The translations under genes and the position numbers were made by a program. A stretch of 26,813 nt of DNA, taken from the UHGV virus genome UHGV-0083306; one strand, written 5' to 3'. This document shows positions 3,236 through 15,384 of this stretch, piece after piece (position 1 is the stretch's first letter; each line of letters starts with the position of its first letter). The notes beneath the pieces were generated by a model, which was not told where the DNA came from, made no database searches, and worked only from the letters and a program-made list of their open reading frames with translations. The DNA comes from a virus.

Positions 3236-4731
3236 CATCCAACTCCGCAAGGTATGTTGTAGCTTGAGTAATCAATCTCTTTAGGATCTTTGATGTCTCG
3301 CATCTGTATTGCAAAACGCCTCATCATGTAGCCATAGCGAACAGCAGAAAGGATGTCGTCATTTAGCTTGACGATCTTCCCGTTCTCATCGCGGTGATAC
3401 AGGCGAAACTCTTCAAAGAATGGCTCGCAGGTGTTAAATACCTTGAAACGACCGTCGAGCATCATGTCGCGTATCTCTGCTATCCCGGGTTCGACCGCAT
3501 TACCTCCATCAGGCCATGTTGCATGATCTGGCAACATATCGAACCCAGCGTCGGCGTATTGTTCCTTGAGCTGAGCGCCGCCTCCCTTTTCGTGCTGATG
3601 CCCGTCATGAGGCCAAGCCGTAGGGGTGTTTTTGCTCCATGCTTTAACAGCACTCCATGCCTCTGTCGCCTTCTTCTGTTTGGCCTTCCAGACGCGAGAA
3701 AGATAAATCACGTCCTCGTCTTTATCCCACCAAAGCTGGATGTGTGCCTGTGGGTGATCCCATCCGAAGTCCATTGCATTGATGACGTAGAAGTGATCAG
3801 GACACTCGAACGGCTGACACTTAATAGTCTCTTCCGGTATCTGGAAGATTCGACCACTACCCATCGTAGGAATACCGCGAGCACGCGCCTCTCTCTCATG
3901 CTCAGGATAGGATGCGATGATTTGCTCTTTCTGCTCGTCGGTATAGTGCTCAGCGTCATAGATGGTCATGTTGACCACTTTCTGCGACTTGCTGGGATTC
4001 TTCAGGAACTTGGTAACAACGTCAGACATCCCCATCAGCGGGGTAAACGTCAGAATTGAGAATTGCCCGTATTTGTTGGTACGGGTAAGACCTTCGCCAT
4101 AAATGCTGTATGGTGGCTCTTCGTCAAACCACACGCCGTGGATTGTGTCACCCTGCCAGCGAGCGCGGCCTTGCGAGTATGGTTTGAAGTAGCAGATTGA
4201 AATGCCATCTTCAACGCCATCAGTCGTGTGATGCTTAACCAGAAGATGATCAACAAGGTTCGGAAAGAAAGGAGACTTCTTCCAGCTAATGATGTCCTCT
4301 TTCGGTATTGAACCGTAGCCCGGCTCATCATTCTCTTCAATACGACCGCACAGGATGCGTTGAGTCGTTTTGGTTACCGTCTCGTTTGTCTCGCCGCCAA
4401 TCCAGAAGACAACAGGCTCATAGAAACGCTTACCTTTCCACTCACCGCCATATTTACCATCAGCAGGATAGCCTTTTGTGCCCGGATAACGCCCGGTAAG
4501 GTGAAACGCGACTTCAGCAGCACCAGTAAATGACTTACCAAGCTGGTTACCAGCCATAAAACAGCGCTCTGGATAGTCATGTCCGGCGTCGATGAACTCA
4601 CGCTGTTTGCTGTATGGCGTAAATTCATATAGCAGGTGTGTGTTCCGGTAGTTCTCTTCTTCTTCGAGTAGCTCGAGCAACTCGATTTGCTCTTCGTCGC
4701 TCAGGTTATCAAGAATCGCGTCCAGTTCCAC
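3235..4731 (-). CDS. terminase large subunit (P22 gp2-like)
   Basis: 498-aa ORF; N-terminus [29 protein letters not shown] and overall length match remembered P22 gp2; position between small terminase and portal. Confidence 0.88.
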
Positions 4732-5519: not shown

Positions 5520-5814
5520 TGTTGGCTCCGTTTATCCGTTAAAAGGGATATCAGTTAAGTTATCCCGTGTAGGGTATAAGCCATTGTCGAGACCACTCAT
5601 TGAATGGTCTCTGCAATAACCGATGTCTTTCCATCAGTCCGCCACCACAAAGAATCTTTTTTGCCATCAGGCAGGAGGTTCATCTTTCAGTGGCTGCCAG
5701 TGTTATTTCCCCACTTTCTGGCTTGGGTTGTTTCGCTGTACTGCCGTTAATTAGTGACCAGAAATTAACTCCGGTTTCATTATCAAGCCCACCCGTAGAT
5801 GGGCTTTGTAATGG

Positions 5815-6072
5815 CTACTTCGCTTTTGCTTCCGCTCGCTTACGCCGGCGCTCTTCTTTCCTCTCGGCTTTTGCCATGTCCATGAATGCCTGCATGATCG
5901 AGTTCCGCATCATGTAGCTAACAAAGTGATGATTGACACAGCCGTTGAGGCGCAGCTGCTCGCCAAACTCATCCACCGAGGCCAATGCTTCCATCATGCC
6001 CTTCTCGCCTTTCATGAACTCTGAGAAGTCGCGCCCCGCTCTGGAGGCGCATTCAATGACACGATCACTCAT
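5815..6072 (-). CDS. hypothetical protein (85 aa), basic C-terminus
   Basis: ORF whose ATG overlaps the stop of the upstream KilA-N gene (ATGA), suggesting translational coupling. Confidence 0.45.
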   Translation of the reverse strand: MSDRVIECASRAGRDFSEFMKGEKGMMEALASVDEFGEQLRLNGCVNHHFVSYMMRNSIMQAFMDMAKAERKEERRRKRAEAKAK

Positions 6073-6566
6073 CCCGGAAGCCCGGGGATCGTAATCTGCA
6101 GCTGGTTAGCCAGGGAGTTAATCTCAGCGACCAACACTGGCTTCGTATAGCGCCATGCTGCCAGCCCTTGTCCGCAGAAGCTCGCCATGTCTTTCTTCTG
6201 GTCAAACTCATGACATTTCATGTTGAGCTGCGCACTTAAGCTGTTGCGATGCTGAAGTTCTCCGGTGAAGTAGTCATCGAGGACTTTATAGGCCGCGTAC
6301 TTGAACCCGGGGTTTAACCAAGCCGCATAATCGTAAGCAACAAACTTCCCGCCATATGTTCCACCGTGTACACCGCGCTCAGTAAAAACCACAGATTCGT
6401 GGTTTTTCTCCAGCTCGGCTAAGAACTCTTTGGTCTGCTTGTTTCGCAGGTAGTGGTAAGGCGATTCAGATTCACTTTTACCACTGGCTTTCCACATATC
6501 AGTGAGGCAGATCATGCCATCTTCACCGATACGAATTGGTTGATTGAAGAGGGTTAATGATTTCAT
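6069..6566 (-). CDS. KilA-N domain protein
   Basis: 165-aa ORF with a KilA-N-like N-terminal motif (…GMICLTDMWKASGK…); common in lambdoid prophages. Confidence 0.6.
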   Translation of the reverse strand: MKSLTLFNQPIRIGEDGMICLTDMWKASGKSESESPYHYLRNKQTKEFLAELEKNHESVVFTERGVHGGTYGGKFVAYDYAAWLNPGFKYAAYKVLDDYFTGELQHRNSLSAQLNMKCHEFDQKKDMASFCGQGLAAWRYTKPVLVAEINSLANQLQITIPGLPG

Positions 6567-6704
6567 AGCGTGTACCTACTCTTTGAAATGAACCTTTGCC
6601 GCACAGGAAACCAGCCCACCGAGGCTCGCCAGCACTAACTGGTATCCTCAAAGGCCCATTCCAAAGGGGCAGGTTCGGTGTAAAAAACATGCGTTGCGGT
6701 ACGC

Positions 6705-6740
6705 ATTTATTGGAAAAAGCCCCGCATCGCGAGGCTCATT
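6705..6740 (-). terminator. possible intrinsic terminator downstream of Rz
   Basis: Minus-strand hairpin (GAGCCTCGC GAT GCGGGGCTT) followed by TTTTCC; a palindrome TGCGTTGCGGTACGCA lies beside it. Confidence 0.35.
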
Positions 6741-6767
6741 AAATGGACTTTGTGATTTGCAAAAAAA

Positions 6768-7205
6768 TTATTTCAGGCATTGCGTCCTGATGTACTCCTG
6801 CAGGTAGTTAACCTGCGCGGTTATCCTGTCGATTCCACTTCGTAGACGGTAATAATTGAGTTCAGCATCTGCTGTAAGTCTTGGGCTTTCTCCATCGCCC
6901 ATGCTGCTGGCTCCGGTCGTTGACTTTGCACAGGTGGCGGCGACTTGCATGCGCTTACGACCAGCAGAAACATCAGCACGGAGACTTTCGATAGTCGCGT
7001 TAGCATCAGCAAGCTCCTTTGTATATCTGGCGTCGAGTTCTGCTACATTGCGTTGACGTTTCTGCATGTCAGCGATAATGAATGCGGCCTTATCGCGCTG
7101 TTCTTTATAGGTAATGGCGTTATCACGGTAATGATTAACCGCCCATGACAGGCAGACGATGATGCAGATAACCAGAGCAGAGATAATCGCGGTTACTCTG
7201 CTCAT
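6768..7205 (-). CDS. Rz: Rz-like i-spanin
   Basis: 145-aa ORF; N-terminus [34 protein letters not shown] matches lambda Rz, the C-terminal half diverges; overlaps the R stop. Confidence 0.85.
6821..7012 (-). CDS. Rz1: Rz1-like o-spanin lipoprotein, embedded in Rz
   Basis: 63-aa ORF in the +1 frame inside Rz; signal peptide with lipobox LVVSAC, proline-rich mature region ([13 protein letters not shown]). Confidence 0.7.
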
Positions 7206-7678
7206 ACCTCAATCTCTCTGACCGCTCCGCCAGCCTCTTTGAATTTTGCAATCAGGCTGTCAGCCTTATGCTCGAACTGGCCATAACCAGCACCCGGCAG
7301 TGAAGCCCAGATATTGCTGCAACGGTCGATTGCCTGACGGATATCACCGCGATCAATCATCGGTAAAGCGCCACGCTCTTTAATCTGCTGCAATGCCACA
7401 GCGTCCTGGCTTTTCGGAGAGAAGTCTTTCAGGCCAAGCTGCTTGCGGTAGGCATCCCACCAACGGGAAAGAAGCTGGTAACGTCCGGCGGCTGTTGATT
7501 TGAGTTTGGGGTTTAGCGTGACAAGTTTGCGAGGGTGATCGGAGTAATCAGTGAATAGCTCTCCGCCAACAATGACGTCATAACCATGATTTCTGGTTTT
7601 CTGACGTCCGTTATCAGTTCCCTCTGACCACGCCAGCATATCGAGGAACGCCTTACGTTGATTATTGATTTCCACCAT
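7202..7678 (-). CDS. R: endolysin, lambda R-type lytic transglycosylase
   Basis: 158-aa [42 protein letters not shown]… matching lambda R. Confidence 0.9.
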
Positions 7679-7985
7679 CTTCTACTCCGGCTTTTTTAGC
7701 AGCGAAGCGTTTGATAAGCGAACCTATCGAGTCAGTACCGATGTAGCCGATGAACACGCTCGTTATATAAGCGAGATTGCTACTTAGTCCTGCGAAGTCG
7801 AGAAGGTCACGAATGAACCAGGCGATAATGGCGCACATCGTTGCGTCGATTACTGTTTTTGTAAACGCACCGCCATTATATCTGCCGCGAAGGTACGCCA
7901 TTGCAAACGCAAGGATTGCCCCGATGCCTTGTTCCTTTGCCGCAAGAATGGCGGCTAACAGGTCATGTTTTTCTGGCATCTTCAT
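7662..7985 (-). CDS. S: holin, lambda S-type
   Basis: 107-aa [46 protein letters not shown]… matching lambda S, including the Met1-Lys2-Met3 dual start. Confidence 0.9.
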
Positions 7986-8580: not shown

Positions 8581-9072
8581 CTATCCCATACTGGAGAATT
8601 CACCATGATATTTTATCCTGGCATTTTCCATTGCCTTTCTAGCCTCCTCGATATCGTCAAAACACCCTACATGAATCCTTTTACCATTGACTCTAATTCT
8701 TCCAACCCACTTGTTTGCAGCAGAATTAAAAGTCACCCCCTTCACACCAGATGAATTGTTTTTCCTCATCTTGCTGTTCCATGAGTTTTGAGTGTTAGTA
8801 ACAACACGAAGATTGGCTATCCGGTTATCAGACCTATCACCATTAATATGGTCAATCACATCGGTTGGCCAATCATTGTAAACCATCAGCCATGCAATTC
8901 TATGGACATATAGCCGCATTCCATAAAGTTTTACCTGCAGATATCCATTGGTTTTATAGCCAACAACAGCGCCATAGATAAATCTAGAGGACCGAGGTGG
9001 ATTCTTCCATGTAAGAATTCCAGTATCTGGATTGTAATTAAAAAGTCTCAATGCATCTTCACGTTTTAACAT
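8581..9072 (-). CDS. HNH endonuclease with AP2 domain (homing-endonuclease-like), inserted in the late leader
   Basis: 163-aa ORF with HNH motif DVIDHINGDRSDNRIANLRVVTNTQN and AP2-like C-terminus (SGVKGVTF…KWVGRIRVNGKRIHVGCFDDIEEA); visibly AT-rich; lies between pR' and tR'. Confidence 0.8.
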   Translation of the reverse strand: MLKREDALRLFNYNPDTGILTWKNPPRSSRFIYGAVVGYKTNGYLQVKLYGMRLYVHRIAWLMVYNDWPTDVIDHINGDRSDNRIANLRVVTNTQNSWNSKMRKNNSSGVKGVTFNSAANKWVGRIRVNGKRIHVGCFDDIEEARKAMENARIKYHGEFSSMG

Positions 9073-9343: not shown

Positions 9344-9967
9344 CTAACGTGTGACCGCATTCAAAATGTTGTCTGCGATTGACTCTTCTTTGTGGCATTG
9401 CACCACCAGAGCGTCATACAGCGGCTTAACAGTGCGTGACCAGGTGGGTTGGGTAAGGTTTGGGATTAGCATCGTCACAGCGCGATATGCTGCGCTTGCT
9501 GGCATCCTTGAATAGCCGACGCCTTTGCATCTTCCGCACTCTTTCTCGACAACTCTCCCCCACAGCTCTGTTTTGGCAATATCAACCGCACGGCCTGTAC
9601 CGTGGCAATCTCTGCATCTTGCCCCCGGCGTCGCGGCACTACGGCAATAATCCGCATAAGCGAATGTTGCGAGCACTTGCAGTACCTTTGCCTTAGTATT
9701 TCCTTCAAGCTTTGCCACACCACGGTATTTCCCCGATACCTTGTGTGCAAATTGCATCAGATAGTTGATAGCCTTTTGTTTGTCGTTCTGGCTGAGTTCG
9801 TGCTTACCGCAGAATGCAGCCATACCGAATCCGGCTTGTGATTGCGCCATCCCCATAGCAGCCATCACATCAGTACCGGAAAGAGAGTCAGAAGCCGTGG
9901 CCCGTGGTGAGTCGCTCATCATCGGGCTTTTTGGCGAATGAAATTTAGCTACGCTTTCGAGTCTCAT
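9344..9967 (-). CDS. Q: late antiterminator Q (lambda-type)
   Basis: 207-aa ORF MRLESVAKFHSPKSPMMSDSPRATASDSLSGTDV… with the zinc-finger cysteines (CRDCHGTG…CGRCKG); matches lambda Q. Confidence 0.9.
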   Translation of the reverse strand: MRLESVAKFHSPKSPMMSDSPRATASDSLSGTDVMAAMGMAQSQAGFGMAAFCGKHELSQNDKQKAINYLMQFAHKVSGKYRGVAKLEGNTKAKVLQVLATFAYADYCRSAATPGARCRDCHGTGRAVDIAKTELWGRVVEKECGRCKGVGYSRMPASAAYRAVTMLIPNLTQPTWSRTVKPLYDALVVQCHKEESIADNILNAVTR

Positions 9968-10152
9968 GGCCTTCCCCTTTTTCCCTGTTTGACCATCAGG
10001 ACGCCGTTAACTATTACGTGACGCTCGCCTTTACTGTCTCGGTTGTACTTGAGCACTGTTCCTCTTGCGCAGGAAAGCATCCTTGCCACTTCGGTCTGAT
10101 TGCCTCGTGTCTGGATAAGAAGCTCTGGTATCGTTTGAATTGTGGCGTTCAT
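9964..10152 (-). CDS. ninH: NinH-like protein
   Basis: 62-aa ORF …GNQTEVARMLSCARGTVLKY… similar to lambda NinH (GNQTEVARRLKCSRGTVRKY); directly upstream of Q. Confidence 0.6.
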   Translation of the reverse strand: MNATIQTIPELLIQTRGNQTEVARMLSCARGTVLKYNRDSKGERHVIVNGVLMVKQGKRGRP

Positions 10153-10511
10153 ACGTTCTCCAGTTCGGTGATTTTTATTCCAAGCCGTCCGCCTGGTACT
10201 TTCACACCACGAATTACGCGAATGTCATCGAATTGCTCGTCGTCTTCCGCAAATCCGGCGTGGATAAGGGAGTCGAGTAAACCTTTCAGGATGTTATCGA
10301 GGTCGCGGCGGCGGGAGTCTGGAACGTCTGCGATGACTTTGATGCGGAGTCTTGATTTGGTGAAAATGTCTAACTTGAGTTGGCGGATGATTTGCTGAAC
10401 GTCTTTTCGGTATTTCTGGCCTTTATCGCTGATGTAGTATTGGCTTCCCCGTCTTCGCCAGTAGGTGTTCACCGACGGCGGGTAAGGAAGCACAAACTGA
10501 TATTCGTTCAT
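10149..10511 (-). CDS. rusA: Holliday-junction resolvase RusA
   Basis: 120-aa ORF with RusA motifs (…DVPDSRRRDLDNILKGLLDSLIHAGF…GGRLGIKITEL). Confidence 0.85.
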   Translation of the reverse strand: MNEYQFVLPYPPSVNTYWRRRGSQYYISDKGQKYRKDVQQIIRQLKLDIFTKSRLRIKVIADVPDSRRRDLDNILKGLLDSLIHAGFAEDDEQFDDIRVIRGVKVPGGRLGIKITELENV

Positions 10512-10798
10512 GGCTTAATCTTCCCCTCCTTCAGCAGGATCGCCTGCGTCCTGATCACGCCTTCGAGGTGATAAAGTCTGGCGTCTTTGTTGTCGAGATT
10601 ATGGGTGCGTCGGTCGATCTCCGCGTGGCAGTCACTACAAGCCCATGCACCGATCAGGTCGTCAGGCTTCATTCCCGTTCCGCAAATTCCAGCCATCCGG
10701 TAATGCGCCAGAACTGTAGTTTCAGGATTGCCATTGCATACGCCGTAAATACGTACCTGGCATTCTCTGCCACGTGCTTCTTTGCGTAGATTAGCCAT
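10508..10798 (-). CDS. YbcO-like protein (DUF1364, putative nuclease)
   Basis: 96-aa ORF MANLRKEARGRECQVRIYGVCNGNPETTVLAH…CSDCHAEIDRRTH, similar to E. coli prophage YbcO. Confidence 0.6.
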   Translation of the reverse strand: MANLRKEARGRECQVRIYGVCNGNPETTVLAHYRMAGICGTGMKPDDLIGAWACSDCHAEIDRRTHNLDNKDARLYHLEGVIRTQAILLKEGKIKP

Positions 10799-11003
10799 TT
10801 ACCTTCCCTCGCAATTGAAGAATTGACTGAAGGTCTTTTTTAATAAATATGCGAGTGCGAATTGAGCAGTAGTTTTCCTTCATTCTGGCGTAGTAATAGT
10901 CCTTTCTTTGCTTAAGTTTGTTGGCATCCGCTGTCATCCAGTCTTTTACAGCAAACTTAATTAACCAGCGGTAACAGAGATACCATTTCAGGTAATCACT
11001 CAT
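10791..11003 (-). CDS. hypothetical protein (70 aa), AT-rich
   Basis: ORF whose start overlaps the NinF stop; no recognisable motif. Confidence 0.4.
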   Translation of the reverse strand: MSDYLKWYLCYRWLIKFAVKDWMTADANKLKQRKDYYYARMKENYCSIRTRIFIKKDLQSILQLRGKVNG

Positions 11004-11166
11004 CGTCTTCTTCCTCGTACATTGAGCTATTCGGATCGCTCATCAGTTCTGCGCAGCAGTGCTCACACACGTGAACTTCCAGCACATGCAGCTTCTGACC
11101 GCAGTTAGCGCACGTTAAAGCTCGCTCGACGCTTTCTTGTTCGTAACTTCGATTTGGGTCAATCAC
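10996..11166 (-). CDS. ninF: NinF-like protein
   Basis: 56-aa ORF (GTG start) [47 protein letters not shown]…; below the 60-aa cutoff of the ORF track; SD GAGG upstream. Confidence 0.6.
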
Positions 11167-11345
11167 CTTGTTTTCCTCGCACGTTCTCTAAGCCACCGGA
11201 TATCCCACAGGTGAGCCGTGTAGTTGAAGGTTTTTACGTCAGATTCTTTTGGGATTGGCTTGCGTTTATTTCTGGAGCGTTTCGTTGGAAGGTATTTGCA
11301 GTTTTCACAGATGATGTCGGTGAAACTTCGTCGCTGTCTCGCCAT
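11163..11345 (-). CDS. ninE: NinE-like protein
   Basis: 60-aa [55 protein letters not shown]…; strong SD AGGAGG upstream. Confidence 0.55.
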
Positions 11346-11481
11346 ACGTCCTCCTTTTCCTGCGGTAGTGGTAAAACTCCTGTTGGTGTTCTTTCACACC
11401 GGAGACACCATCGATTCCAGTAAGGTTAATTTGGTCTGAAGCGGTTATCTTCTTTGCATTCACCGCACCGATCACATCGCA

Positions 11482-11903
11482 TCATGCAGCCCGATCTCCC
11501 CATCTCGCTTTCCACTCCAGAGCCAGTCGCGCTTCGTCTGACCACTTAACGCCACGCTCTGTACCGAATGCCTGTATAAGCTCTAATAACTCCGCAAATT
11601 CGCTTACACGCATCCTGCTGGTTGACTGGCCTATTACCACAAGCCATTCCCGGCAAGGTTAGGAACAACGTCCTGCTGCTTTAATGCTGCGGTAAACACA
11701 CACTTCCAGCTTTCTGCATCCAGCCAGCGACCATGCCATTCAACCTGACGAGAGACGTCACCAAGGCAAGCCCAAAGCTTTCGATTCTGGTCTAAGCTGC
11801 GGTTGCGCTGCTTAAACTCGACAATGATGTCTAAATCGCATGTCCTAAGATACTGAATGGCGTTATATCTTATAGATTCATTAGTAAGGTGTATTTGACA
11901 CAT
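11482..11903 (-). pseudogene. ninB: ninB (orf) 3' portion, frameshifted
   Basis: 11903-11634 encodes NinB-like …QRNRSLDQNRKLWACLGDVSRQVEWHGRWLDAESWKCVFTAALKQQDVVPNLAGNG then stops; the rest ([52 protein letters not shown]) continues in the -1 frame from 11640 to a stop at 11482-11484. Confidence 0.65.
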
Positions 11904-11909
11904 TTCATT

Positions 11910-12497
11910 TTAATACCTCGCAAATTCGCCGAAACATTCATCCGCTTTATTTGCATATACTTTATGAGCTTCCTTTGGGTCATCGTAAAACCCAAGATTA
12001 ACTTTCCTCTTGTTGATTACGATTTGCGCCCTCCATTTTCTTGATTTCTTATCCCATGAAACGCCTTTATATCCTGATTTGTTATTTGCCTTTTTGTTTA
12101 CGTTTTGGATGTTTTGAGATCGAGTTGCCAATCTAAGATTTGCTATACGATTGTCATCCCTAACGAGATTTATGTGGTCGATATCACTTTTTGGTAGACT
12201 GCCATTCATATAGAGCCACGCCAGCCTGTGTGCCTTATAAAGTTTTCCATCGACTTTTATTACCCAGTAGCCTTCGCTACTCTTATGCCCTGCGATATCC
12301 CCAGCATTCATTCTCTGGCATTTCTTTACTTTCCATGTGAATTTCCCTGTTAACTCATCGTAGAGAAGGACTTCTTTAAGTCTCTGCTGAGTTATTTGAT
12401 TGATTGGTTTGGTTGGGTCTGGAAGAATTTGCTGTATCGCGTGAATAACGTTTTGCTGATGAATGGGGCTTCTTAGTTCAAACGTTAGTTTCCTCAT
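11910..12497 (-). CDS. HNH-AP2 endonuclease fused in-frame to the first ~33 codons of ninB
   Basis: 195-aa ORF: residues 1-33 MRKLTFELRSPIHQQNVIHAIQQILPDPTKPI match the NinB N-terminus; the rest carries HNH (DIDHINLVRDDNRIANLRLATRSQN) and AP2 (SGYKGVSWDKKSRKWRAQIVINKRKVNLGFYDDPKEA); paralog of the 8581-9072 gene. Confidence 0.75.
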   Translation of the reverse strand: MRKLTFELRSPIHQQNVIHAIQQILPDPTKPINQITQQRLKEVLLYDELTGKFTWKVKKCQRMNAGDIAGHKSSEGYWVIKVDGKLYKAHRLAWLYMNGSLPKSDIDHINLVRDDNRIANLRLATRSQNIQNVNKKANNKSGYKGVSWDKKSRKWRAQIVINKRKVNLGFYDDPKEAHKVYANKADECFGEFARY

Positions 12498-12732
12498 TGC
12501 TCACCTTCTGCACGCATGGATTAATTAACGCCAAAATAGCTTCTGGTTTCTCAATAACATCGAACCGCTCACCACTTGCCATTCTTACAATCGTAATCCC
12601 GGCCTCAAATAGGGTTTCGATGTTGTCAGAGTTAACGTACAAGGGCTCATATGCACTTCTGGTGCTTTCTATCACGCCTGTGCTTGGTGGCTGATAGATG
12701 CTGCATTGCATGGTTAATTTTATAAATGGCAT
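12478..12732 (-). CDS. hypothetical nin-region protein (84 aa)
   Basis: ORF with strong SD GAAGGAG upstream of its ATG. Confidence 0.5.
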   Translation of the reverse strand: MPFIKLTMQCSIYQPPSTGVIESTRSAYEPLYVNSDNIETLFEAGITIVRMASGERFDVIEKPEAILALINPCVQKVSNEETNV

Positions 12733-12736
12733 ATAC

Positions 12737-13012
12737 TCACTCCTTCACTTTGACTCCAGCAGCGCGGATGTTTTCCTCATAAGCATCCATTGCATCACCG
12801 AAGCCATTGGAATAATCAACAGTAAACCCTTTGGCTAATGCTTCTCTGCTGTCGATAAACTTTGGCGCGGTTATTTCAATAGCTGCGCGAGATGCCTGCC
12901 ATGCCCTCCATGCCATTTCCGTTGATGAATAAACATACCCGCAATCACCATATGCAAGGCTTAAATTTTGCTTTTTCGCGAACTCCAAAAACTGCTTTCT
13001 TGATTCGTCCAT
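12737..13012 (-). CDS. hypothetical nin-region protein (91 aa)
   Basis: Start taken at internal ATG (MDESRKQFLEF…) adjacent to the upstream gene stop; the ORF track extends to 13036 from a GTG. Confidence 0.45.
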   Translation of the reverse strand: MDESRKQFLEFAKKQNLSLAYGDCGYVYSSTEMAWRAWQASRAAIEITAPKFIDSREALAKGFTVDYSNGFGDAMDAYEENIRAAGVKVKE

Positions 13013-13013
13013 A

Positions 13014-13229
13014 TCAATCCCCGTTAGTCGTTTCACTCACGAATCTGACAAAACCAGCCATGTTAATTTGCATGAGTTTTTTCAATACTTTGTCTCGTCG
13101 GCTACGTTTTGGTTTTGGCCTGTGGTTGAATCTTTCACAAACTGGAAGGCTTGATGATTTCCAGTACCTATTACGCCTTGCTCCATCTTCCGCCATATCG
13201 GCATGAATAAGGTCTGCGAGTGTGCTCAT
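13014..13229 (-). CDS. hypothetical protein (71 aa), basic
   Basis: ORF with SD GGAGAGG before the ATG at 13229. Confidence 0.45.
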   Translation of the reverse strand: MSTLADLIHADMAEDGARRNRYWKSSSLPVCERFNHRPKPKRSRRDKVLKKLMQINMAGFVRFVSETTNGD

Positions 13230-13243
13230 ATTCACCTCTCCAG

Positions 13244-13426
13244 TTACATTGGTTTTGTAATGTTGCTAGTCATCTTACGAATAAAAAGATGCGTACGTAG
13301 CTTTGCTTCCCACATGTAAATCTCCTCAAGGCGAGATAAATCTACGAATACCGGACCTTTGTAATCTGGTCTTGATGCCCTTATGTATGAGCTAATAGTT
13401 TGTGCATCTTGCTCGTCAAGATTCAT
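13244..13426 (-). CDS. hypothetical protein (60 aa)
   Basis: Start at MNLDEQ with SD GGAGAGGGAAG; lies just downstream of the terminator that follows the primase-helicase gene. Confidence 0.4.
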   Translation of the reverse strand: MNLDEQDAQTISSYIRASRPDYKGPVFVDLSRLEEIYMWEAKLRTHLFIRKMTSNITKPM

Positions 13427-13441
13427 GACTTCCCTCTCCCC

Positions 13442-13474
13442 CAAATAAAAAGGCCTGCGATTACCAGCAGGCCT
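13442..13474 (-). terminator. intrinsic terminator after the primase-helicase gene (tR2-like position)
   Basis: Minus-strand hairpin AGGCCTGCTGGTAATCGCAGGCCT followed by TTTTTATTT. Confidence 0.55.
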
Positions 13475-13503
13475 GTTATTAGCTCAGTGATGTAGATGGT
13501 CAT

Positions 13504-15384
13504 TTAATACTCCGTCACGTTTTCCTGTCGCCACGCCTCGTCATATTCCGATTTCGGCATATTGGCGATGTAGCTATATGGCGATCCTGATTCAAGTTGC
13601 AGGAACTGGTGCGATTGCTCGTCAAGGAACAACGGGACACCACCTTCCCAACCTTCGCCGTTACGTTGCTTTTCAAGCATCAAAACAGATGCCGGAGATG
13701 CCAGTAGCTGTTCGTCCTTCTCTGACATCCTTTCACCACTCTGAACTCTCTGTAACGCTCTCTCGCGAGCCTTGTTACGCCAGATGATAAAAAGGTTGTC
13801 TGTCAGGTCTGTTATCGCTCCAGAGCCTTTTACGTCCATTTTACCGGTTGGTTTTTCTTCGCTGTCTCCTTTTCTGGAGTGAGTAACGAGAATGACGTGG
13901 GAGTTTGTTTTGTTTTTGAAGTCACAAATCGAGTCAACAAATGCTTTCTGCCCGTTATAGTCATCGTCACCTATGCCGCATTTCATCAGGCTGTCGATGA
14001 TGAATAACTGGATGCCGTATCGGCGGCGAGCGTAGTCGAATATTTCGATCAGCCTGTCGGCTTTCGCCGTTCCGGTCAGGCCAAACACCCAGAGTCTTTC
14101 GTCATAAAATTTAAATGCAGAGTCAATTTCCAGCACTGGCGGCATCTTGCAGCACGTTGCCTGACGGGTAAGTCGCTTAAGGAGAATACCAGGCTTCAGC
14201 TCAAGTGACGCGATGCACGTCTTCACACCCTGACGCATTGCCTCAAGTGCCATATGCCCGACAACCTCCGTTTTTCCGTGACCGTTCACACCATTGACCA
14301 GCGTCAACTCTGCCTCACGGAACTGGAATTTATCTGCCAGAGATTCCCACGGTGGATTAAACAGATACTGCTGCTTGCCGTAGAAAGCGTTGATAGTGTC
14401 CTGGTAAAACTCTCGCGCGCTGTAGAGTTCTTCAGGGTCGAAGTAGGATGCCGTGCCGATGTACTGCCAGATTTCATCCTCGGTAACACCGTTCATCAGG
14501 CATTCGTTGATGTCTTTGTACGGCAGAGTAACAAGACGGCAACGATGTTCACCGAGTCGGCTTGCGATTTCCCTTGCGGCTTCACGACCAACATCATCAA
14601 CGTCCATCGAGATGAATATTTCCTCAAACCTGTCGAGGTTGTGATACTCAAACTCAATCCACTGTTGCTTAGCGCCTTTTCCTCCACCAAACGGCACGGA
14701 TAACGCCGAGATGCCGTATTGCGCATAGCTCATACAATCAATTTCGCCTTCGCAAAGCACAACCGCCCTCACGCCAGCGTCCAGAGCCTGCCATCCGAAC
14801 AGACAAGGTTCACAATCACCTTCTGCCATAATGACTTTCTTCCCGTCCGGGCGCTCAGTGCTGATTCGCTTGACCTGCAACAACTCACCATCGCGTTTGT
14901 ACGGAAGCACCAGTGCATCAAGTTCTCGTTCTCCATTCCACACCTTGCCGCTGACAACCTCGTAGCGCTTTACGACTTCTGGCGATATGCCACGCGATTG
15001 CAGGTACTCAAGATGGGATTCTGTTCTGGTAACGTAGCGGGCTATTTTCTTGCGATCAGGTCTGGAGAATTTCTTCTCACGTTTGGCATCGAAATGGTGA
15101 TCGTCATCCTTGATACCGAGAAATGCTTTCGCTTCCTGCATAGCCTGATGCAGGTTAATTCCACGACATTCCATCCACAAATCAAGCATGTCACCGCCGT
15201 CTCCCTCAGCGAAATCAGCCCATTTTTTCTTGCCGCTAAGATTGACCTTAAGGCTGTTTCCCTTGTCACCGTTGACGTTACCGGCAACCCACTCATGCCC
15301 CTCTTTCTTGCCGTTTGGCAACAGGTGCGGAGCCACCCTGTCAACCTGCGCCCAAAGCAGGTCGCTGAGTTCACTTGGCCTCAT
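13504..15384 (-). CDS. bifunctional DNA primase / replicative helicase
   Basis: 626-aa ORF: TOPRIM-like motif (VVLCEGEIDCMSYAQYG), then Walker A (NGVNGHGKT) and Walker B-like (LFIIDSLMKCG) of a DnaB/RecA-fold helicase. Confidence 0.8.
   Translation of the reverse strand: MRPSELSDLLWAQVDRVAPHLLPNGKKEGHEWVAGNVNGDKGNSLKVNLSGKKKWADFAEGDGGDMLDLWMECRGINLHQAMQEAKAFLGIKDDDHHFDAKREKKFSRPDRKKIARYVTRTESHLEYLQSRGISPEVVKRYEVVSGKVWNGERELDALVLPYKRDGELLQVKRISTERPDGKKVIMAEGDCEPCLFGWQALDAGVRAVVLCEGEIDCMSYAQYGISALSVPFGGGKGAKQQWIEFEYHNLDRFEEIFISMDVDDVGREAAREIASRLGEHRCRLVTLPYKDINECLMNGVTEDEIWQYIGTASYFDPEELYSAREFYQDTINAFYGKQQYLFNPPWESLADKFQFREAELTLVNGVNGHGKTEVVGHMALEAMRQGVKTCIASLELKPGILLKRLTRQATCCKMPPVLEIDSAFKFYDERLWVFGLTGTAKADRLIEIFDYARRRYGIQLFIIDSLMKCGIGDDDYNGQKAFVDSICDFKNKTNSHVILVTHSRKGDSEEKPTGKMDVKGSGAITDLTDNLFIIWRNKARERALQRVQSGERMSEKDEQLLASPASVLMLEKQRNGEGWEGGVPLFLDEQSHQFLQLESGSPYSYIANMPKSEYDEAWRQENVTEY

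Follow-up and report, generated by a model that had tools for sequence, protein, structure and literature searches.

A putative HNH-AP2 homing-endonuclease cassette that probably rebuilds its target gene, ninB, behind itself

The virus genome UHGV-0083306 was analysed over its whole stretch of 26,813 nucleotides (nt), hereafter the window, whose positions are used as coordinates throughout. At 11482-12497 it carries the recombination gene ninB, and a gene for an HNH-AP2 endonuclease has entered this gene close to its 5' end. All genes concerned lie on the minus strand, and the open reading frames (ORFs) and other features of the locus are as follows.

11910-12497, minus strand: fusion ORF of 195 amino acids (aa), consisting of native NinB codons 1-32 and an HNH_3/AP2 endonuclease in frame, with the stop codon TAA at 11910-11912 (from the ORF list and Pfam)
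12402-12497, minus strand: displaced native ninB 5' end, codons 1-32; leader and translation start of the endonuclease, and putative left homology arm
11910-12401, minus strand: endonuclease proper, codons 33-195 plus stop, with its own start codon absent
11916-11919, minus strand: Shine-Dalgarno (SD) sequence GAGG of the rebuilt ninB, inside the final endonuclease codons (..GCG AGG TAT TAA), as read from the sequence
11808-11908, minus strand: replacement ninB 5' end carried by the cassette, hereafter the module; 34 codons in relatives, MKCVKYHLTNESIRYNAIQYLRTCDLDIIVEFKQ
11482-11807, minus strand: resident ninB body, from the RNRSLDQ motif on, frameshifted in the window (Pfam NinB on both pieces)
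11808-12401, minus strand: inferred mobile block of endonuclease plus replacement 5' module, 594 nt in the window

The fusion ORF begins as NinB and continues in frame as an endonuclease. The first 32 of its residues, MRKLTFELRSPIHQQNVIHAIQQILPDPTKPI, really are the N-terminus of NinB. Across 12402-12520 the DNA shares 92-99% identity with the starts of annotated, uninterrupted E. coli ninB genes, and this identity ends exactly at 12402. The start codon of the fusion (ATG, 12495-12497) overlaps the 3' end of the upstream FlbD-like ORF (12478-12732) by 20 nt, and the same overlap was found in the uninterrupted ninB of phage Sf6. In the remainder of the 195-aa ORF, Pfam recognized HNH_3 at residues 87-129 (E 9.2e-17; 60.9 bits, the cut-off being 24.8) and AP2 at residues 141-181 (E 1e-6; 29.4 bits, slightly under the cut-off of 33.3). 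The DIDHIN..DNR..NLR..QN motif is kept in both cassette lineages, of which the window represents lineage 1. A 195-aa in-frame fusion of this kind is present at each lineage-1 locus examined, and the protein cluster of this type (P0121) holds 592 member sequences.

Between codons 2 and 62 of the fusion ORF there is no in-frame ATG, GTG or TTG. The junction residue is an asparagine (AAT) where free-standing relatives carry methionine; MKLTQQRLKEV.. of the free-standing P0171, for example, aligns with ..KPI-NQITQQRLKEV.. of the window fusion. Since the endonuclease lacks a start of its own, it would be translated from the ninB start site, and its synthesis presumably depends on this captured start. 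The initial annotation of this DNA had described a NinB N-terminus that passes into an HNH-AP2 endonuclease with no new start codon. This description was borne out, the N-terminal match proved not to be spurious, and the comparison with intact ninB placed the insertion point at 12402, where the native match ends. The insert is also AT-rich as first noted, with a GC content of 0.355-0.425 over 11800-12499 versus 0.51-0.525 in the ninB body. In RefSeq, the PGAP pipeline cuts the single 195-aa ORF into two features (L002:2501-3088 and L003:2465-3052), namely a 117-nt 'HNH endonuclease' pseudogene, which is really the ninB remnant, and an endonuclease coding sequence that starts from ATA or ATC, so that the fusion is hidden.

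Behind the endonuclease ninB is, to judge from the sequence, rebuilt and not left split. In an alignment with the ninB of Sf6 and of two E. coli prophages, ninB homology restarts one base past the endonuclease stop codon as a divergent, homologous 5' end with its own SD and ATG. The GAGG lies 7 nt 5' of the ATG at 11906-11908. Relatives read ..GCG AGG TAT TAA A ATG AAA TGT GTC.., encoding MKCVKYHLTNESIRYNAIQYLRTCDLDIIVEFKQ|RNRSLDQNRKLW..., and the native form of NinB is MRKRTFELRSPIHQQNAIQAIQQILPDPIKPIVVTIQE|RNRSLDQ.... The module is 4 codons shorter than the native 5' end and shares 29% protein identity and 40-47% DNA identity with it. GCGAGG ahead of the downstream ATG recurs in the second lineage and in a methyltransferase gene, both described below. 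No sampled NinB N-terminus was more than 37% identical to the module (range 17-37%) when its natural source was sought.

Pfam detected NinB on two ORFs of the window, on 11634-11903 with E 6.5e-28, beginning at residue 3 and profile position 4, and on 11482-11640 with E 1.2e-10. The initial annotation had let NinB similarity resume only at QRNRSLDQ, but the match already starts at residue 3, and the approximately 27 codons in between are a divergent NinB N-terminus. Its view of an endonuclease splitting its host gene stands in so far as an HNH-AP2 gene did enter ninB and was fused to it in frame; the gene, however, is not simply split, and in relatives it is rebuilt. In relatives the downstream ORF alone spans the NinB profile from position 4 to its end, and a gene in pieces, with two halves assembling into one protein, was rejected on these grounds.

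The rebuilt product, NinB', begins directly behind the endonuclease at all of the 20 lineage-1 loci whose translations were inspected (E. coli, Salmonella and IMG/VR), and in five complete E. coli chromosomes the gene that directly follows the endonuclease is annotated by PGAP as an intact 142-aa 'recombination protein NinB'. Wherever the contig is uncut NinB' is 141/142 aa long, with the exception of a 134-aa hybrid in L092 and a 170-aa form in L005 and L006. In the latter two, which are near-identical Salmonella contigs (4001-4595 in both), the C-terminus is longer and has another sequence after ..LALEWK, which may be due to a frameshift or a deletion into the next gene. An AlphaFold model of a 141-aa NinB' (P0004) had a mean predicted local distance difference test score (pLDDT) of 84, and the PDB entry that it matched best was lambda NinB (1pc6; E 5.7e-14, all 141 columns of the alignment).

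The copy of the rebuilt gene in the window itself differs from all relatives by two single-base deletions. One T is missing between 11892 and 11891. With this loss the ORF from the first ATG (11908) ends after 12 codons and a second ATG (11903) is now in frame, which explains the in-frame codons seen in the initial annotation. Another T is lost from the T-run at 11641-11642, which breaks the NinB frame, and NinB' of the window ends after 89 aa (stop at 11634-11636), its final 52 codons being found in the ORF 11482-11640. Neither deletion is present in any other carrier (20 other lineage-1 loci), and the remaining long genes of the window appear intact. When a near-identical genome was sought for judging the deletions, no complete E. 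coli genome covered more than 65% of 10100-13600. The rebuilt ninB of the window is probably inactive, and this because of the one-base deletion at 11641-11642 and not because of the endonuclease insertion. The deletions represent either real pseudogene decay or homopolymer sequencing errors.

A single alignment was made of nine carriers of lineage 1, comprising five E. coli chromosomes, three Salmonella contigs and the window. Variable columns amounted to 99% in the 150 nt of upstream flank, 26% in the native remnant (as among ordinary ninB alleles), 1.4% in the endonuclease, 3.8% in the replacement module, 17-31% in the ninB body, and 97% in the downstream flank. The block of low diversity extends from nt 74 to 711, counted from the fusion ATG, with polymorphic ninB on either side, and just outside it ninB differs by up to 25% between carriers. 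The neighbouring genes vary as well; a primase-helicase, DnaB or an insertion sequence element is found upstream, and PAPS reductase, N6-methyltransferase, an MT-A70 enzyme or NinE downstream. Such a near-invariant block beside differing ninB sequences points to recent spread across phages of both E. coli and Salmonella, where it has reached three or more types of ninB allele. Twelve further IMG/VR contigs have the same remnant-endonuclease fusion with NinB' directly behind it, and the junctions in the Salmonella and IMG/VR loci are the same as in the E. coli carriers. An identical cassette also occurs in a third ninB allele (L092, about 5800-6900), which has a lambda-type N-terminus and a very divergent body (..QRNRS|IRQNARLHAMLSEISKK..), and the cassette-free counterpart of this allele was found at L116:1501-1917 (..RNRS|IRQNARLHAMLSEISKKATYHG..). 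With both forms of the allele at hand, the RNRS / R-S-x-x-Q-N region looks like a recombination joint.

Module and endonuclease were strictly linked. The module was detected in 8 of 5426 complete E. coli genomes, all 8 of which also carry the endonuclease, and in IMG/VR the endonuclease accompanies it in 13 of 13 contigs that match either of two degenerate module patterns. A module without the endonuclease was never found in the 5426 genomes or, with the two patterns, in IMG/VR. The second of these patterns gave the same 13 contigs and no further ninB-cassette lineage in IMG/VR, and a metagenome scan for more lineages yielded mainly endonuclease-free ninB. Uninterrupted lambda-type ninB is present in 1279 E. 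coli genomes versus the 8 with the cassette at the same codon, a presence/absence polymorphism. The cassette was seen in prophages and metagenomes instead of phage GenBank records: in a megablast search of 50,697 such records none covered 80% of a 1401-nt query spanning the insert, and the matches listed were to flanking ninB and upstream genes only. A protein-pattern scan and a degenerate module DNA pattern were both without a match in GTDB species-representative genomes.

A second lineage of the cassette was found in P0122, L007 and L028, with its junction 5 codons upstream of that in lineage 1. Its fusion protein (P0122, 192 aa) joins a Cronobacter-type NinB N-terminus (MRKQTFEIRTPLVQQNAIRTIQQLYPD) to the endonuclease, and the fusion is in frame in all carriers of both lineages. 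The lineage-2 endonuclease is 69% identical in protein sequence to that of the window, and its module is likewise 69% identical to the window-type module. The endonuclease stop codon is followed directly by ATG (TGA ATG), which opens an intact 142-aa NinB' starting MKTIRYHLISESVRYNAIQFIRTCNLDLIVEVKQRTRSLDQ. Residues 1-27 of the remnant agree with local cassette-free alleles, with which the ninB body has 93% DNA identity. Between the lineages, the proportions of nonsynonymous (pN) and synonymous (pS) differences were 0.21 and 0.75 in the endonuclease and 0.18 and 0.71 in the module. The low pN relative to pS indicates that both were kept as protein-coding sequences, under purifying selection, while diverging together. 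Purifying selection, the full-length ORFs in relatives and the conserved SD-ATG suggest, indirectly, that the hybrid NinB' is an expressed, functional copy.

To locate a candidate target, the insertion point was compared in cassette-free alleles. The two types of such alleles differ strongly there but share the 12-mer ACCATTCAGGAA, which comprises the TIQE codons of a conserved VTIQE motif. It is the most conserved stretch near the junction, at a distance of 1-6 codons on the 3' side of the left junctions. Of 48 non-carrier loci (mostly ninB loci, with a few fetched via other endonuclease matches), 39 contain it, and it is absent from the window and from 23 of 23 carrier loci. The module recodes this region as GTC GAG TTT AAG CAG in the window type and as GTT GAG GTG AAG CAG in lineage 2. 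This is the pattern expected of a homing site and an immune allele, and it makes ACCATTCAGGAA a candidate core of the target.

We propose that the mobile unit is the endonuclease gene together with a recoded copy of ninB codons 1-34, which would invade the 5' part of ninB without destroying the gene. Insertion would displace the native first 32 codons upstream, where they would become the leader of the endonuclease ORF, and the captured ninB start may be translationally coupled to the upstream gene. The GAGG in the last endonuclease codons and the new ATG would then open the module, which would run into the resident body at RNRSLDQ and give full-length NinB with no need for splicing. In an uninterrupted ninB the endonuclease would cut near ACCATTCAGGAA. 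The break would be repaired from a cassette-bearing phage, the left arm being ninB codons 1-32 and the right arm the ninB body, and the repair would copy endonuclease and module jointly. The cassette allele itself would be immune, since its remnant lacks the core and its module spells it differently. A promoter and terminator scan of the cassette gave nothing above shuffled expectation, so that the cassette is presumably co-transcribed with the nin operon. What we infer in this scheme is that the enzyme cleaves, where it does so, by which route homing proceeds, and that translation is coupled.

The same design was encountered in two other genes. In E. coli TUM1880 (L003:4345-5488, NZ_CP135706.1), the NinG N-terminus MAKPARRRC is fused to a 188-aa HNH endonuclease; there is a 26-nt overlap between the endonuclease ORF and the ninG that follows, whose first ~30 residues are recoded. 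This prophage holds both the ninB and the ninG cassette. In a food metagenome (L108:1375-2429, UOZL01000370.1), a 175-aa HNH endonuclease is fused to MTIKSNTPA, the start of the nin-region N6-adenine methyltransferase. Past GCGAGGGTTGAATG the methyltransferase begins anew as MIKHKSETPKEVRDCWQTP.. and from there on is near-identical to the native protein, with one later substitution. More distant relatives of the ninB-associated endonuclease (34-50% identity) are mostly free-standing, with their own methionine 11-17 residues before the conserved motif, so that the start-fused design appears to be a specialised subset. We are inclined, if only slightly, to regard these cases as a general class of 'start-capturing, self-complementing' homing-endonuclease cassettes in lambdoid phages. 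Members of such a class would enter a gene a few to a few dozen codons past its start, seize the initiation site, and recreate the gene with a recoded, cleavage-immune 5' end and an SD.

Other explanations of the ninB locus were weighed against this one. A group I intron or an intein could house the endonuclease, with RNA or protein splicing restoring ninB, and the insert is indeed in frame with the upstream ninB codons, AT-rich, and placed so that it breaks a conserved gene. Rfam, however, returned no families in the whole window at gathering thresholds and, over 11600-12700 at E<=10, only chance-level matches to a CRISPR repeat, microRNA and small nucleolar RNA; the check for group I intron structure advised in the initial annotation therefore brought up no intron family, of group I or of group II. 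Excision of the block of endonuclease gene plus module would join ..KPI to RNRS.. and drop six VVTIQE codons of uninterrupted alleles. No boundary pair recreates ..KPIVVTIQERNRS.., and the VVTIQE codons are nowhere in the locus. With regard to an intein, the TAA at 11910-11912 rules out a continuous polyprotein, Pfam shows HNH_3 and AP2 only, with no Hint or intein domain, and the downstream gene of relatives lies in a different frame. Both forms of splicing are at odds with a complete alternative ninB start, SD plus ATG, which lies downstream and is kept in two lineages, and we consider them extremely improbable. It is also very unlikely that the insertion is plainly disruptive, with ninB dead wherever the endonuclease sits and the downstream 5' end mere filler. 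The window, where two one-base deletions leave an 89-aa NinB', would fit this, and ninB is dispensable for lambda growth. Those deletions, however, occur in 0 of 20 other lineage-1 loci, and in E. coli and Salmonella NinB' is full length where the contig allows (141/142 aa, with 134 aa in L092 and altered forms in L005/L006). Filler would not be expected to fit the NinB profile from position 4, to be under purifying selection between lineages (pN 0.18 versus pS 0.71), or to follow a conserved SD-ATG. The initial annotation had not decided whether the interruption was intron- or intein-like or simply inactivating; given no Rfam intron, no Hint domain, a stop codon, a recoded 34-codon replacement and intact 141/142-aa NinB in relatives, none of these descriptions finds support.

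A static mosaic deserves more attention, although we judge it unlikely. It would require one old illegitimate recombination that put an endonuclease gene and a foreign ninB 5' end downstream of a ninB fragment, after which the block spread by ordinary homologous recombination with an endonuclease that is inactive or used otherwise. Lambdoid nin regions are highly mosaic, and P0018 provides a natural N-terminal swap in NinB. The rarity of the cassette (8 versus 1279 genomes) would agree with this history, and the homing activity of the endonuclease is deduced from sequence. Several observations argue for an active element instead. In both lineages the endonuclease has an intact ORF that is strongly constrained by purifying selection (pN 0.21, pS 0.75), and its HNH_3 match is far above the cut-off. 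The near-invariant block adjoins ninB sequences that differ by up to 25%, as expected of recent spread into at least three allele types, and the conserved core beside the junction is missing from every carrier. Independent endonucleases with the same design, moreover, are found in ninG and in the methyltransferase gene.

Taken together, we think it likely that the locus holds a free-standing HNH-AP2 homing-endonuclease cassette that rebuilds its target, ninB. This reading draws on what was shown, namely the anatomy of the locus, the linkage between endonuclease and module, the pattern of diversity, the existence of a second lineage and purifying selection acting on the module. A number of points weigh against it. 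In the window itself ninB' is frameshifted, and the AP2 assignment of the ninB endonuclease scores just below the Pfam cut-off (29.4 versus 33.3 bits). The structural match of NinB' to 1pc6 is modest (template modelling score ~0.54; root-mean-square deviation 8.5 A), and the module region of the model has a pLDDT of 70-83. Synonymous differences between the lineages are saturated, so dN/dS, the ratio of nonsynonymous to synonymous substitution rates, is approximate only. A GTG in frame near the N-terminus of the lineage-2 endonuclease offers a possible alternative start. Among the natural NinB N-termini sampled, none came close to the module (17-37% identity). The scarcity of the cassette (8 versus 1279 E. 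coli genomes) fits a homing cycle and would also fit a weakly active or inactive element. Finally, the cutting of ninB is putative, and the target core is deduced from conservation and absence.

Further endonucleases and a short remnant lie around ninB and in other nin regions. The window encodes another HNH_3 plus AP2 endonuclease at 8581-9072 (minus strand; 163 aa), which has its own ATG and no fused remnant, is 40% identical to the ninB-associated one, and stands free, with the antiterminator Q gene (9344-9967) on one side and a holin-like ORF (7662-7985) on the other. Its AP2 domain passes the cut-off at 33.6 bits and aligns with the AP2 region of the ninB endonuclease at 40% identity. In a metagenome (L107:1293-2041, OOAW01002597.1), an HNH-AP2 endonuclease with its own start lies inside ninF; the N-terminal part of NinF runs into a new tail, and the native NinF C-terminal end is found downstream in another ORF. 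By analogy with the mobile ORFs of mitochondria (mORFs), this ninF may be a 3'-end-replacement version of the design. In another cassette-bearing prophage, of E. coli APEC20/16, a different endonuclease of the NUMOD4-HNH type is located 3' of ninF (L088:4548-5057). Several families of endonucleases appear to have a hot spot in the nin regions of lambdoid phages. In the window, 136 nt separate the ninB stop from ninE (11346-11481, minus strand) and are coding within ORF 11426-11545. The same 136-nt sequence, possibly a ninD-like remnant, occurs 3' of ninB in the IMG/VR contigs L095 and L101.

Where homing endonucleases lie within coding sequences, the usual explanations are introns, inteins or tolerated gene splitting, and the ninB locus would represent a fourth solution in phages, in which the element carries a rewritten spare of the gene part it displaces and borrows the gene's own start. 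If active, the cassette would account for sudden switches between N-terminal alleles and for short 'orphan' gene fragments in the nin regions of lambdoid phages, and it would be a natural recoded rescue cassette that follows the same logic as engineered gene drives. If the class is real, homing endonucleases could colonise compact, translationally coupled operons without introns or inteins and could drive N-terminal mosaicism in ninB and ninG, in the methyltransferase of the nin region and perhaps in further genes. The design is masked at present by annotation pipelines, which take the remnant for a partial 'HNH endonuclease' pseudogene and choose ATA/ATC starts for the enzyme.

A literature search of incomplete coverage returned no paper with this design for ninB or for phages generally, the only related items being a remark on phage epsilon34 and a paper on phage ShiLan. 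In Salmonella phage epsilon34, gene 31 is described as joining an eaE-like N-terminus in frame to a putative HNH homing endonuclease (PMC2629481). It resembles the ninB fusion in joining a resident-gene N-terminus to an HNH endonuclease, in a P22-like phage. We draw this likeness from the published description only, and the paper notes the fusion alone, without a replacement 5' end, linkage or mechanism. In ShiLan, an HNH homing gene inside a phage coding sequence stays as an extra protein loop and is read in another frame (PMC11855218). It is likewise an unorthodox HNH homing gene in a phage coding sequence without splicing; at ninB, in contrast, the host gene restarts and the endonuclease uses the original frame of ninB.

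The nrdA gene of Aeromonas phage Aeh1 is reportedly split by mobE, with two halves that are made separately and assemble into one enzyme, as Friedrich et al. are said to have described in 2007. Here also an endonuclease gene lies inside a coding sequence without an intron or intein and the host function survives, but the ninB locus encodes one complete NinB downstream and has no need of the upstream fragment. Intronless homing is known for the T4-type endonucleases SegF, SegG and MobE. SegB is a further example among the free-standing Seg/Mob endonucleases by which T4-like phages perform it (PMC2330249). As proposed for ninB, such an endonuclease cuts the endonuclease-free allele of a neighbouring gene, and co-copied flanking polymorphisms protect the donor. 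The T4 genes, however, are intergenic, with their own starts, no fused remnant and scattered protective polymorphisms, whereas ninB has a discrete recoded module behind a duplicated start.

The closest analogue appears to be the gene hybrids made by fungal mitochondrial mORFs, which are known from atp6 of Allomyces macrogynus and from atp6, atp9, cox2 and nad3 of Glomus (Beaudet et al. 2013, PMC3630166, citing Paquin et al. 1994). These elements insert with a foreign C-terminal gene segment, and the native C-terminus stays downstream as a remnant (PMC3630166). In both systems a free-standing endonuclease ORF, which can be in phase with the gene, is linked to a divergent copy of a gene end, which takes the place of the native end in the expressed gene, and the native end persists as a remnant. 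At ninB this corresponds to a module of 29% protein identity to the native end, a remnant of 92-99% DNA identity, and strict linkage. The two differ in that the ninB cassette replaces the 5' end and the mORF the 3' end, as mirror images; in that the ninB remnant is not idle and supplies a start and leader to the endonuclease; and in that the ninB endonuclease is of the HNH-AP2 type and those of mORFs are LAGLIDADG or GIY-YIG enzymes. The ninB cassette, moreover, resides in a temperate enterobacterial phage and not in a mitochondrion, and ninB is restarted via an SD embedded in the 3' end of the endonuclease gene. The cassette design, whose activity is presumed, recurs in at least three genes but has a clear mitochondrial precedent, and the mirror-image relationship with the fungal hybrids suggests convergent evolution.

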